A stretch of DNA of 64,000 nt from Eledone cirrhosa (GCA_964016885.1 OZ024741.1:315270001-315334000); one strand, 5' to 3'. Shown: positions 1 to 57,527, counted from the first letter of the stretch. A program made the numbers and translations. Notes: generated by a model not told the origin, from the sequence alone.

Positions 1-2957
1 AAGATTTGGTTGATATCCTAAACTTAGTGGTAGATGAAATTAACAATGATAGTGGGAAACCTATGAACCTAAGATTTGTAGACAGGAAAAAGTCATCCCT
101 TACCTTGAGGCGAGGAGCCTTCACCAGTGCAACAATATCCTCAAAGCAACAGCAAATGCGGTGAGGAAATTACATGGCATAAAAGCGAGAGGAAACAAGA
201 AACAAGAAAGATCAGAAAATTGGTGGAAGAAACGAATGAATGGTCAAATCAGGGAAATGAGAAATGATATTGGAAAGCTTAAGTCCTTACTGAATGGGAC
301 ACTAAAAAACATAGACACTAAAAATAGACTGGAAATAAAGTACAAAACTAGGAGGAAAAAGCTAAATATTATCATAGAGGAACTGAAGCAACGCATTGTA
401 GCAAAGAGTGCAAAAATTAGGCGATACGAGACCAGAGTCAGTCAGTATAGACAGAACCGCATGTTTGACAACAACCAGAAGATGTTGTTTGGACAGCTTG
501 AAGGGAAAGAAAGAGGCAACGAATGGATCCCTGAGGCGCAACAAACTAAGACATTCTGGAGAGGAATATGGGAGCAGGATGTTAAACATAATGACCAGGC
601 AGTGTGGATTGAGACAGTACAAAAGGAGATTAGTGAACAGGTACACCAACAAACTGATTTGAGTATCACATTTGAAACTCTTAAGGGGCAGGCCAAAAAA
701 ATGACCAACTAGAAATAGCCAGGCCCAGATAGTGTGCAGGGGTATTGGATTAAAAATATAACATCCCTCCACCCGAAACTGACAACCATGTTTCAATGAC
801 TGCTTGCTGTCAGATGAGGTACCAGAGTGGTTGACAAAAGGTACCACAATTCTGGTAATGAAAGATCGAATCAAGGGTAATGATGTTACCAACTATAGAC
901 CTATCACATGTCTGTCCGTAATGTGGAAACTGTTGACAAGCATTGTGTCTGAGGAAATCTACCATCACCTCCACACAAACAACTTGTTACCGGACGAACA
1001 TAAAGGATGCCGAAAGAAGTCCCGTGGTACAAAGGACCAGTTACTTATTGATGAGATGGTAATGAGGAATTGCAAGAGGAGACACACTGGTCTTGCCATG
1101 GGATGGATAGACTACAAAAAGGCATTTGACATGGTGCCTAATTCTTGGATCACCAAAAGCCTAGAGATCTTCAAGGTGGCAGATAACATCAGACAGTTGT
1201 TGAGCAAAAGTATGAAGTCCTGGAAAACAGAGTTAACATCAACTGGAGAATCCTTGGGAGGCGTGAAGATCAAGAGAAGTATCTTCCAGGGAGATAGTCT
1301 GTCCCCTCTGTTGTTTGTCCTTGCCCTGATGCCCCTGACCATTATACTGCGAAAAGTAAGAGCAGGATACAAGTTGGGAAAGGGAGAGCTTACCATCAAA
1401 CACCTCCTCTTCATGGACGATCTTAAGCTCTTCAGGAAGAGTGAACAAGAGTTGGATATACTTGTTGACACTGTCCGTATTTTCAGCAATGATATATGTA
1501 TGCAATTTGGTATTAGTAAGTGTGGAGTCCTTGTGATGAAGAGGGGTAAATTGAGCAGAAGCAACGGAATCTAGGTACCAACAGGTGAGATGATAAAGGT
1601 AATTGACACTGAAGATGAATACAAGTATTTGGGTGTTCTGGAGACTGATGACATCAAGAACAAAAAAATGAAGGAATTGATAAGATCTGAATACATTCGG
1701 AGAGTAAGGAACGTATTAAAATCATATCTAAATAGTAGGAATGTCATAAGTGCAGTGAATTCCTGAGCTGTGTCTATTATTAGGTACAGTGCGGGAAATC
1801 TGAAATAGAATGTTGCTGAACAAAAATAAAGGGATAGGAAGACTAGGAAACTATTGACTATCTACAACATGTCCCACAAGAGGAGTGATGTCGATAGACT
1901 CTACTTAAGGAGATCTGAAAGTGGAAGAGGTCTTATCAGCATAGAGGACTGTGTTCAGATGGAGAAAAACAACCTGCACAAATACGTGACTGACAGTAGG
2001 GAGCCAATGCTCGGAATTGTACTGAAGGAGAGGACAATAGACCAAGGTATGTCCAAGGAGGAAACAACAAAAAGTAGGAAGAGGAAGCTTCATGAAAAAT
2101 CCCTTTATAGTACCTTCTTTGAGAAAACTGAATTCAGAGATCCACAGACATGGAACTGGTTAAAAAGAGGAGACCTTAAAAAGGATACAGAAGGAATGCT
2201 AATGGCTGCGCAAAAACAGGCCCTCAGAACGAAGTGGGTGAAACACCATATTTACGAGGAAGGGTCTAGCTTACTGTGTAGGATCTGTGGAGAGAGAGAG
2301 AGAGGAGACTGTGGTTCACATTGTATCCGAGTGTAAACAGCTAGCCCAGAACCACTATAAATGCTGAAGACATGATGTGATGGGCAGGGCGATCCACTCG
2401 AACTTATGCAAAATAAACAATTTACCACATTCTGAGAAGTGGTATGAGCATAAGCCAGAGTCGGTGATAGAAAACGATCAGGTGAAGGTGCTATGGGATT
2501 TTAGGATACAGACAGACAAGAAACTGGTACACAATAGGCCTGACCTGGTGGTTTTGGACAAGGAAAAAAGATCGTGCCTGATTGCAGATGTAGCCTGCCC
2601 ATTTGACACGAGAGTGCAAGAAAAGGAGAGGGAGAAAATTAACCGATACCAGGACTTAAAGTGGGAGTTTAAAAGGATTTGGAACTGCCATGAAGTCAAA
2701 GTGGTCCCGATTGTCATAGGCGCACTAGGTACTATCTCAAAGAATTTCCAAGGATGGTTAAAGAAAATTAGTCCAAACACGCTCTTTGGAACACTTCAAA
2801 AGGCATGCTTGCTGGGAACAGCAAGAACCCTCCGATACGTCCTGAATATCTGAGGCTGCAGGTAGCAGCTTGATATTTATTTCAACAAACTTTCCAATTA
2901 AATAACATCAATGACTGAGACTAAAAGAATAAAAATAATAATAATAATAATAATAAT
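1..2957 (+). mobile_element. R4/Dong-clade non-LTR retrotransposon (RT + CCHC + restriction-like endonuclease), degenerate; 5' part lies outside the window
   Basis: ORFs 161-712, 804-1574 ([29 protein letters not shown]), 1854-2336 (CRICG) and 2377-2853 (HNRPDLVVLD...DVACPFD...EKINRY, an RLE motif set) are broken by stops and frameshifts. The 3' UTR is followed by an (AAT)n tract at 2928-2957. Confidence 0.93.
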
Positions 2958-3231
2958 GATTTCTTCATTGGTCAGAAGAGCTGACATCAAGAAAATCATT
3001 ACAGACGGCGCAGGACGGTACAGGACGGTACAGGACGGTACAGGGCGGTATGATGTGGGTTTTATGCGTGTAAAGATTTTTATTATTTATATCAGAAACG
3101 AAAAAAAAAAGACAGAAACATATATATAAACAATAAAAATGAAAATTCAAACAATGAAAAATTCCCCAATAGGCGGGGGGAGAACCTCCGAAGGTTACTC
3201 GTGGCGGAAACCACACAAAAGGCAACCTTGC
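2958..3231 (-). mobile_element. Tx1-type L1 retrotransposon, 3' UTR only (5'-truncated)
   Basis: The reverse complement matches the 3' UTR at about 53770-54029, including the CGTCCTGTAC 10-mer repeats and the ...GAAATC-(ATT)n end. Confidence 0.85.
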
Positions 3232-55463: not shown

Positions 55464-57527
55464 GTGCTGAATTTCTCGAGTTGATTTTTCATGTGTTCAT
55501 TGAGATTTTATACAGAATATTATACATTGTCGAGTAGCTAAGGAACCACTCTTTCAAGGGAGGTACCTTTTTAACCATATCTCGCGCCTTTAATTGCAGA
55601 ATTCGTGTTTATTTACAATCACACCCCTTAATTTTTTGTTTGAAAAAAACATGGTGGATGGAAAAATCAACAGGGAAGAACAACGGTTGTTCAGAAAGTG
55701 GAACAGTCGATTTTGTCCAATCGCAAGGTAGAAACAACAACAGAAACACTAGCAGCTACAGTGCCAGTTGCATCGAGAACAATAGCAGCAGCAGCAACGG
55801 TGGCAGTAGCAGTGACAACAGCAACAGCAGCCACTTGAACAGTAGCAGCAGAAACAGCACCAACAACAAGGATTTTAAAATTATCAGCAGCAGCACAGCG
55901 CCAGACTATTACGAAAAGTTTCAGTCGCTAGAGAAATCAACAATCACCAGCGGCACCGACATCTTAATAACAACAGCTGCAACATCCACAAAGAACCCAA
56001 ATACCGTAACAGCAGCAACACAGAAGAAAAAACTAACAAGACAACGGCCACCACCAACAACAACAACAAAACAACAACAACAACAACAACAACAACAACA
56101 ACAACAACAACAACAACAACAACAACAACAACAACGACCACATCAACAGCAGCACTAACACCACCACCAACAACAACAACACCTGCGCAAAACCCAATGT
56201 ATCTTTTGCTAAAGCGGCTAATAAAAACGAAAAAATTGAGGTAAGCCGGAAAGAACTGAATGATGCAAAGCGAGTGGTAAAAACAAATGGTTACTCCCCC
56301 ATCAAATACCATGCAACATCGGCGCCTATGTACTGTATCTTTTCGCACGATTAATATAAAAACACACCGAGTGGAGCGGGCATACGGGGCCGAGATCCAA
56401 AAAGCTTTGGGACATGAGTGGGCTCAAAAAACCCTCATCAAACGTGGACAAATATATGGTACAGTGGACTTGTTCTTTGGAAGCCCACAGCAAGCAAGAG
56501 AGCCCTCTATGGCCACATTAAAAAGTGACGAGTTCATACTCGTCCCAATCTACTTTGGTCAGAGGCTGGTAAGAGTCAGGTTGACCAGGTTCCGCCGGAG
56601 AGGGAACCCACCGAAAGGCCTGCTGCCCTCAGGGGATTGCTAAAAAATTAAGGACACCTCTCTTGCCCATCCTACTGACTCAACCAGCAAAACCAGCAGC
56701 AGCAACTGTAGCAGCAACGGGAGTAGCAATTGTAGCAACAACAGTAACAAGACCAACACCACCAACACCAGAAGTAGCATCAGCGCCTTCACCATTCACC
56801 ACGCCACAAACAACACCAACGCCTCTGGAGGACATTCCGCTCCCCGACCTCTCACAACTGGAGACCGATTGGGACGAGAAGGAGGGGTGGGAAATTGTAT
56901 CTGTAAAAAAAGGAAAGAATCCTCTTTTTCGTCCTCCAAAAAAGTAGACGACGAAACAAACAAACAAACAAAAAACTACGCCACCACACCAGCATCACCA
57001 GCCCCATTACCACACATACCAACACCATCACCATCGTCCACCCCGACACGATAAAAAGACCCACAACAAACGCAAACACCACAAAGTACCCAAACTGAAA
57101 CTGAAACACATTACACAGCATTAAACTTTAACAATAAGCAATTATTACACTATATCCAACACAACACCAGAATCTGCCTGTTTATGCCCCAAAAGGGGCA
57201 GGGCGGCCTGGCGACCTTCCTAGGAACCTCCCACTCTTAATGTTAGTGGGTAATTGGAAAGGGATCTTGGGTGCGCTCTGGTATTGTGTAGGAATAGCGG
57301 ATAGGGGAGGAGGGTGTAAAAGCGTCACAAACCTACTCAGACGTTTCCAACTGTCTGACAGGTACCAACTGGATTTCCCGAATGTGCCAATGTGGACATT
57401 GACAAACCGCATCGGGTCATCCAGATCGTATCTAGATAGAATATTTGTGAGGAAATAGATAATTCTAGCATAGGTTGTCTATAATTCAAAATAGTCGACT
57501 ACACAGACCACAAATTCGTGACCTATG
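55464..57527 (+). mobile_element. Tx1-type L1 5' portion (ORF1 type A with (CAA)n, internal deletions, ends in APE)
   Basis: HRRLCTVSFRTIN...EIQKALGHEWAQK (56287-56643). APE remnant at 57190-57527 ends at YTDHKFV. Confidence 0.85.

Follow-up and report, generated by a model that had tools for sequence, protein, structure and literature searches.

Tx1-like, SINE and Dong/R4-type retroelements share (AAT)n/(ATT)n tracts in opposite orientation in Eledone cirrhosa

We analysed a 64,000-nucleotide window of the Eledone cirrhosa assembly GCA_964016885.1 (OZ024741.1:315270001-315334000; genome 3.0 Gb), together with loci fetched from elsewhere in the genome, for non-LTR retrotransposons bordering trinucleotide tracts that read AAT on one strand and ATT on the other. 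The sequences indicate that an L1/Tx1-group long interspersed element (LINE; hereafter Tx1-like, or Tx1), a short interspersed element (SINE) and two Dong/R4-type LINE families occupy the same tracts on opposite strands, each machinery likely nicking its own strand independently and priming there. We hold more tentatively the wider idea that long (AAT)n tracts are largely built or extended by the Tx1-like LINE, which encodes an apurinic/apyrimidinic endonuclease (APE), with its SINE at ATAAT^R (R, purine), and by opposite-strand Dong LINEs, which would feed each other's targets and form polarised arrays tens of kb long.

Strand polarity and 5' flanks at the tracts

The initial annotation, which described the window from sequence alone, had placed Dong on the AAT strand and Tx1 and the SINE on the ATT strand. 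This polarity holds genome-wide over 431 de-duplicated tracts from all fetched loci, where Dong-type ends lie on the AAT strand in 278 cases against 6, Tx1 ends on the ATT strand in 174 against 2, and SINE ends on the ATT strand in 168 against 1. It is also present on the 5'-facing side, where it is not forced by the tail (Dong 115 vs 4, Tx1 73 vs 1, SINE 73 vs 1). In 60 unselected 10-kb stretches, all 22 element ends at tracts follow the polarity, and 12 of the 16 unselected tracts of at least six units touch an element end. The window itself contains two polarised clusters, Dong(+)/Tx1(-)/SINE(-) at 1-24.5 kb and SINE(+)/Tx1(+)/Dong(-) at 42.8-57.5 kb, which are not inverted copies of one another, their long Tx1 copies being about 75-80% alike. 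The regional polarity first described for 1-24 kb and 43-57 kb holds in the map; a Tx1(-) piece at 57526-58533 deviates from it.

Enrichment of (ATT)n at Tx1 5' flanks, a further expectation of the initial annotation, was found with queries that contained no tract. The background is low, an ATT run of at least three units occurring in 56 of 20,000 random 27-mers (0.3%). Of 29 copies of the older Tx1 subfamily from outside the window, 28 are immediately preceded by at least three ATT units and one by two, and the young subfamily has a 5' flank of at least three ATT units in all 12 full-length copies, or 11 of 11 without the reference copy. Truncated central copies, counted by hand, have a tract at the 5' end in 8 of 18 cases (p ~3e-16 vs 0.3%). 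This last count left out the window copy, all 12 full-length copies, copies running off their locus, those with internal deletions (L032, L059, L104, L214, L220, L222 and L229), the chimera L092 and the interrupted copy L101. The Tx1-like family therefore exceeds the >20% of flanks used to recognise microsatellite-specific Tx1 elements (PMC4494074). The truncated copies L100 and L206 have an identical unrelated upstream repeat, which suggests a further element breaking Tx1 copies after insertion; some of the tract-less truncated ends, though not demonstrably all, look like such later disruption.

Truncated copies and target duplications, rather than full-length 5' flanks, are the fair test of targeting. 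Full-length Tx1 5' junctions are single-phase, the first G being preceded by ATT or ATC in 27 of 29 copies (ATT in 16 of 17 in a set that was not de-duplicated), and the ATC form travels with one subfamily (7/9 vs 0/20, p 2e-5), so that the element itself encodes the final base of the 5' tract, if not more. This tract is 2 to 28 units long. In at least five Tx1 5' untranslated regions (UTRs) that look unrelated to one another, a G directly after ATT is the first base (window 18616, 24342, 47964 and 55464; L109:3233). Target duplications with non-tract letters flank the Tx1 copies L038, L204 (14/14 bases) and L205 (22 bases, one mismatch); the duplications of three Tx1 copies span 14-23 bp, and two of the three informative ones start ATTAT, the insertion site of L205 being ATTCC.

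Dong 5' ends have at least three AAT units in 20 of 29 cases, two in four and none in five, never on the opposite strand, and 27 of 29 Dong 3' ends have at least three; the element thus carries (TAA)n at both ends, as in the Dong/R4 clade. The phase of its 5' junction is variable, and a duplication with non-repeat letters was read at L285, the other Dong duplications being mostly pure repeat and uninformative. Automatic 5'-flank counts (Tx1 28/62, Dong 46/76, second Dong 9/14, SINE 80/201, wrong strand 0) also took in ends of library sequences where no genuine 5' end lies, and the central-copy counts are preferred for that reason. At the margins of this pattern, a long (CTT)n run comes after a young Tx1 copy (L230:1622 onward), and the Dong 5' ends at L263 and L272 follow (GAA)n; these neighbours may reflect tail mutation or a targeting relaxed toward the repeat known for Koshi.

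Element families, target motif and tail-to-tail junctions

The predicted proteins give the Tx1-like family the layout of an L1/Tx1-group LINE, with an N-terminal APE, a reverse transcriptase (RT), a C-terminal cysteine-rich domain and a separate open reading frame 1 (ORF1). L109, a full-length young copy of 5.8 kb, encodes ORF1, which bears a zinc-knuckle-like motif recognised by eye, and ORF2 (APE, RT, zf-RVT). Pfam matches in ORF2 are Exo_endo_phos (8e-15), RVT_1 (9e-27) and zf-RVT (6.5e-05, below the curated cut-off), and the usual catalytic motifs of the APE are intact. The best solved relative in the PDB is LINE-1 ORF2p (~1e-41, against 1e-18 for R2), in a comparison outside of which lie RTE, CR1 and the I group. 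The nearest named relative, with 70% identity, is an Argonauta hians hypothetical protein, and no named Tx1L, Kibi, Koshi or Keno reference was among the homologues returned by protein searches.

The Dong-type element, about 4.4 kb long, has the Dong/R4 layout of an RT followed by a CCHC motif and a PD-(D/E)xK endonuclease, with no APE. Translations of intact genomic copies have a CCHC motif and an intact catalytic PD..D motif at the C-terminus, and a homologue of 1158 amino acids, 70% identical, matches RVT_1 and not Exo_endo_phos, with R2 as its best PDB match. No named R4-clade reference is among the 120 homologues listed. A Myb/SANT-like domain at the N-terminus is a feature of the Dong/R4 clade (PMC7998251), for which the 70%-identical homologue gave no Pfam match, a profile-profile search not having been made. 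While Dong of Bombyx mori has a 5' ribozyme of hepatitis delta virus (HDV) type, a crude home-made descriptor without positive control found none at 24 Dong 5' ends here; home-made descriptors, likewise without positive control, found HDV-like ribozymes at 0 of 17 (not de-duplicated) and 0 of 29 Tx1 5' ends, and Rfam gave no match at gathering score over the whole window. A second Dong-like family, found through recurrent tract flanks (L182:4474-6057; a cluster of 34 tract flanks), has a different 3' end and lies on Dong's strand. It shares the (AAT)n/(ATT)n niche, and 9 of 29 of its 3' ends meet Tx1 tail-to-tail.

The SINE has a transfer RNA (tRNA)-like head, with A/B-box-like motifs by eye, for which Rfam gave only chance matches; a longer variant carries about 30 extra bases ahead of the shared 3' end and ATT tail (L161, L173, L187 and others). 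In 600 kb of evenly spaced unselected DNA, which holds 41 tracts of at least four units, Tx1-like sequence makes up 3.1% (to which older relatives at 65-78% contribute a part), the SINE 2.4% and Dong 1.0%. Because the families cover at least 6% of unselected DNA, their targeting rule shapes a large part of the genome. Further repeat families begin or end at tracts (the L050 downstream flank; L019, L198; L045, L049; L035; L053), of which one resembles an RTE 3' end by eye and some, starting with G right after ATT, may be 5' ends of more Tx1 subfamilies.

Target duplications were found in 32 of 64 unselected SINEs, against 0-4 in mismatched controls, and only four of the 64 have at least four ATT units at the 3' end. 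The 56 non-tract duplications among 201 copies are 10-25 bp long, with a peak at 15-17 bp, and start ATTAT(T), ATTAT standing at +1 to +5 in 47-50 of them; position -1 is T in 26, C in 19, A in 11 and G in none. Since the SINE mostly inserts outside tracts, at Y/ATTAT (Y, pyrimidine at -1) with 10-25-bp duplications, what the APE machinery recognises is likely a short motif and not the microsatellite. The initial view of this Tx1 lineage as (ATT)n-specific agrees with the tract enrichment but is probably too strict, given that the SINE, a likely user of the same enzyme, lands at Y/ATTAT, mostly outside tracts. The link between the two is one of strand and target signature, the SINE lying on the same strand (ATT 168 vs 1) with the same ATTAT starts. 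Its 3' end also resembles those of two older Tx1 subfamilies, only 0.2-2% of random 40-mers scoring as well, and matches a fourth Tx1 subfamily weakly and the Dong ends not at all. Three SINEs (L177, L185 and L189) landed exactly in an older SINE's tail, from which the duplication begins, and form tandem runs without a long tract.

Tails probably also serve as targets at the tracts. Past the tract upstream of 29 Tx1 5' ends we found 15 SINE tails, three Tx1 tails, five truncated Dong-type ends and six others, and upstream of 29 Dong 5' ends, 10 Dong-type tails. The Tx1 copy L205 lies at a non-tract site, flanked by its 22-bp duplication, and supplied an (ATT)9 tail of its own; because these nine units precede a non-tract duplication, tails create tracts. 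The initial annotation had proposed that each tail is a target for its own family and for the other. The use of tails as targets is supported (18/29 Tx1 and 10/29 Dong 5' ends; L205), whereas the order of cross-family insertions is unreadable in perfect repeats. The Dong 5' UTR contains a short (AAT)n (window 11416-11430) that hosts SINE insertions in several copies (L291, L292, L296 and L301), so that Dong carries an internal target for the opposite-strand machinery.

Four tracts had been reported in the window as shared by two 3' ends, one of Dong on the AAT strand and one Tx1-like on the ATT strand, and all four junctions are present, at 2934-2957, 9683-9703, 13398-13415 and 54030-54056. 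The order reported for 54030-55463, Tx1(+)-tract-Dong(-)-(ATT)3-Tx1(+)-(ATT)15, was likewise recovered, with an additional Tx1 5' end at 55464. Among loci fetched with a Dong-only query, a Tx1 3' end faces 12 of the 29 Dong 3' ends, against 2-3 of 29 Dong 5' ends meeting Tx1 (p 0.015 taking 3); with about three Tx1 3' ends in 600 kb of unselected DNA, a chance Dong/Tx1 meeting has a probability of ~1e-4 to 1e-3.

Mechanism, alternatives and known systems

We hypothesize that the Tx1 APE makes its nick in the AAT strand between T and a purine, at ATAAT^R, which would be the counterpart of the TTTT^R nicked by the L1 nuclease. The freed ...AAT-3' end would pair with the (AUU)n tail of the RNA, and the inserted copy would read ATT for this reason. 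A short AUU/AUC leader on full-length Tx1 RNA may in turn pair with the target, a likely cause of the single-phase 5' junction. The same enzyme would carry the SINE, in which case a tract would be a hotspot because every repeat unit is a site. Dong would perform the mirror reaction on the ATT strand. Through target duplication and an added tail, one tract would become two, and polarised arrays such as the two in the window would grow because each insertion leaves two tracts. If true, the system would parallel SART/TRAS across element classes, on a target both dispersed and self-made, and one enzyme would act at two stringencies, tract-bound for the LINE and motif-bound for the SINE.

A number of results weigh against this reading. 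The search loci were the 30 top scorers among 300-2700 candidates, and element-rich clusters hold most of the flanks; a tract is missing at the 5' break in 10 of the 18 truncated central Tx1 copies, and full-length Tx1 5' flanks overstate targeting, their junction being single-phase and partly inherited. The SINE 3' end matches the young Tx1 subfamily weakly (10-39% of random 40-mers are as good). The ATTAT part of the SINE motif could arise by RNA-tail pairing, and only the pyrimidine bias at -1 points to the nuclease. The tail-to-tail excess of Dong ends is non-significant once SINEs are included (p 0.18), and that of Tx1 ends is small (9/30 vs 5/29 as bare counts); among 595 junction pairs, 11 reach 97% identity or more on each side. 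In public reads (three contig sets of one sample and three runs of restriction-site-associated DNA sequencing), other copies swamp the signal over window 53700-55800 and L177, with no joint across an insertion readable and no empty allele recovered, which is evidence for neither side.

The alternative that survives best, although we regard it as rather unlikely, is that specificity comes mainly from pairing between primer and tail: a relaxed L1-like nuclease would nick many T-purine steps, and only nicks able to pair would be extended. It could apply to Dong as well, through an (AAU)n tail, and it departs from the mechanism proposed above only in the source of specificity, overlapping with it otherwise. 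The identity of the conserved SINE target, ATTAT, with the tail is what such pairing would give, and the insertion of L205 at ATTCC, the scarcity of SINEs with at least four terminal ATT units (4/64) and the pairing-directed initiation reported for SART1 (PMC7265360) are in line with it. Position -1, by contrast, lies beyond the pairable stretch and is never G (0/56), LINE copies are far more tract-bound than a 5-base pairing would require, and nuclease swaps shifted specificity between SART and TRAS (PMC7265360).

Joint spread of both sides of a junction, whether through segmental duplication or through read-through (3' transduction) that set out from a few donors, is improbable. A minority could be co-mobilised or duplicated, given the 11 pairs that are nearly identical on both sides, and the window junctions at 2934 and 54030 are about equally alike on their two sides (91% and 89%). 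The window's four junctions nevertheless involve three Tx1 subfamilies, the remaining pairs being 77-86% alike on the Tx1 side, and over 35 distinct junctions genome-wide the similarity of one side is unlinked to that of the other (Mantel r -0.02, p 0.58). The Dong sides of junctions resemble each other (94.4%) no more than other Dong ends do (94.2%). A single duplicated ancestral junction, the origin by which the initial annotation would have been undone, is rejected by this lack of correlation and by the differing Tx1 subfamilies.

An absence of targeting, with trinucleotide tails on all families, a 5' (ATT)n leader on Tx1 and passive build-up in tolerant regions, would accommodate the partly inherited Tx1 5' junction, the 10/18 truncated copies without a 5' tract and the long tail added even at a non-tract site (L205), yet it is very improbable, since truncated ends, unable to carry a leader, meet tracts ~150 times as often as chance, 5' tracts range from 2 to 28 units, imperfect-repeat duplications flank single copies (L038, L204 and L285) and the polarity holds at 5' ends; tails without targeting are rejected by the 5' flank enrichment, truncated ends included.

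Mammalian L1 and Alu use a short T-rich motif nicked at a T-purine step, with ~15-bp duplications and new copies placed in older tails. The T-purine nick proposed here, the ~15-bp duplications, a primer-pairing tail and insertion into older tails are all alike, while (ATT)n takes the place of poly(A) as tail and motif, and LINE copies stray much less from the repeat. Tail-primer pairing has been described (PMC3812793). Dong elements insert in (TAA)n, a site stated to be usual for them in insects, molluscs and cnidarians (PMC3812793, PMC7998251, PMC3774820). Dong of B. mori, DongAg, DongBg and Darwinula Dong1/2 likewise combine an RT with a C-terminal CCHC motif and restriction-like endonuclease at (TAA)n sites; in contrast to these, two families here share their tracts with an APE element on the opposite strand. 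Microsatellite LINEs of the Tx1 clade include Kibi in (TC)n, Koshi in (TTC)n and crocodilian families in (TTCC)n/(TTTC)n (PMC4494074), which also have ORF1 and an APE-RT ORF2, the repeat at both ends and a fixed orientation. The target here is instead (ATT)n or Y/ATTAT, in a mollusc host, and the available part of PMC4494074 names no A/T-only target.

SART and TRAS, of the R1 clade, insert in opposite directions into one telomeric (TTAGG)n repeat, with specificity set by the nuclease and RNA-target pairing at initiation (PMC7265360). They resemble the present case in that two families insert oppositely in one repeat; both, however, are APE elements of one clade at telomeres, whereas here an APE element and a restriction-like element meet on a dispersed microsatellite that is apparently extended by insertions. 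For SINEs, SINEU was inferred to be carried by Tx1-Mar from a common target preference (PMC4494074); it has a small nuclear RNA head, a poly(A) tail and a Mariner target, in contrast to the tRNA-like head, LINE-like 3' end and ATT tail found here. CoeSINE, considered as a coleoid SINE, was rejected, being from coelacanth (PMC5786205).

Each component thus has precedent, while the (ATT)n target and the sharing of a niche by APE and restriction-like elements appear unreported. Neither an (ATT)n-targeting Tx1 element nor a Tx1/Dong pairing was present in the literature searched; Repbase entries, figures and supplements lie outside that search and could record the target. Dong-R4 and L1-Tx1 elements are abundant and recently active in Octopus vulgaris, in a report whose available text holds no target analysis (PMC13282606), and our reading offers a sequence-level cause for repeat hotspots such as those mapped in that annotation (PMC13282606). 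It also points to a likely new target for the Tx1 group and a likely engine for the dominant SINE. With many copies whose duplications are readable, the shares of nuclease and tail-primer pairing in site choice become testable.

Map of the window and further observations

The first cluster opens with a degenerate Dong/R4-type LINE (+) at 1-2930, with RT (RVT_1 at 783-1571), CCHC and restriction-like endonuclease regions and a 5' end beyond the window. It is followed by the (AAT)8 tract of the first tail-to-tail junction (2934-2957), a Tx1-like 3' UTR fragment of an older subfamily (-) at 2958-3221, whose truncated end has no tract, and a Dong fragment from the 5' UTR and ORF start (+) at 3258-3646. 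A Dong 3' part (+) at 8425-9682, with its 5' side against an inverted-repeat element (7570-8425), leads into the (AAT)7 tract of the second junction (9683-9703) and a 5'-truncated copy of the young Tx1-like subfamily (-) at 9704-10798, 94% identical to L109. The latter adjoins, without a tract, the true 5' end of a Dong copy (+) at 10800-13397, which has the 5' UTR (AAT)5 at 11416-11430 and an internal deletion at 13045/13046. Beyond the (AAT)6 tract of the third junction (13398-13415) lie two stacked Tx1-like pieces (-), at 13416-14133 and ~14144-18616, the second being tail-less with its 5' end at 18616. An (AAT)5 tract (18617-18631) then forms a Tx1 head-to-tail junction with a near-full-length Tx1-like copy (-) at 18632-24342, whose 5' end follows a SINE tail: the interval 24343-24551 (-) consists of an (AAT)5 tract, a SINE (24358-24538) and an (AAT)3 tract.

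Between the clusters, a tandem pair of SINE copies (-) without a long tract occupies 30653-31016, and a SINE (-) at 32229-32417 lies outside any microsatellite, with a target duplication of ~17 bp, read from the sequence, beginning ATTATTAAT.

The second cluster begins with an (ATT)7 tract and a SINE (42839-43027) in the interval 42811-43037 (+), with a 10-bp duplication starting ATTAT. A Tx1-like copy (+) at 43472-47945, with internal deletions and an A/T-rich, decayed 5' flank, is joined head-to-tail through an (ATT)6 tract (47946-47963) to a near-full-length Tx1-like copy (+) at 47964-54029, in which an ORF1 zinc-knuckle-like motif, APE, RT and zf-RVT were recognised and which is interrupted by a tract-less Dong fragment (-) at 52231-52918. 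The fourth junction, an (ATT)5-ATC-(ATT)3 tract at 54030-54056, precedes a 5'-truncated Dong of ~360 bp (-) at 54057-54415, with a tract on either side, then (ATT)3 (54416-54424), a young 5'-truncated Tx1-like copy (+) at 54426-55418, 95% identical to L109, and (ATT)15 (55419-55463). The 5' part of another Tx1-like subfamily (+), at 55464-57527, begins right after (ATT)15, and the Tx1 ORF1 piece (-) at 57526-58533, which breaks the regional polarity, has no tract at its junction.

Broken ends without a tract are thus found in the window for Tx1 at 3221 and 10798, for Dong at 8425, for the Dong fragment at 52231-52918 and for the Tx1(-) piece at 57526-58533; the Tx1 3' end at ~14144 is tail-less, and the copy at 43472 has a mere decayed A/T-rich flank.

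Other repeats fill the remainder. Penelope-like elements, recognised by eye from RT and GIY-YIG-like motifs, lie at 34766-39565 with no tie to the tracts, and include an inverted pair (35724-37304 and 37966-39565) of 88% identity. Inverted-repeat elements resembling miniature inverted-repeat transposable elements and filled with (TA)n/(CA)n occur at 7570-8425, 60437-61908 and 62914-63317, and those at 60.4-61.9 kb contain an internal (AAT)4.

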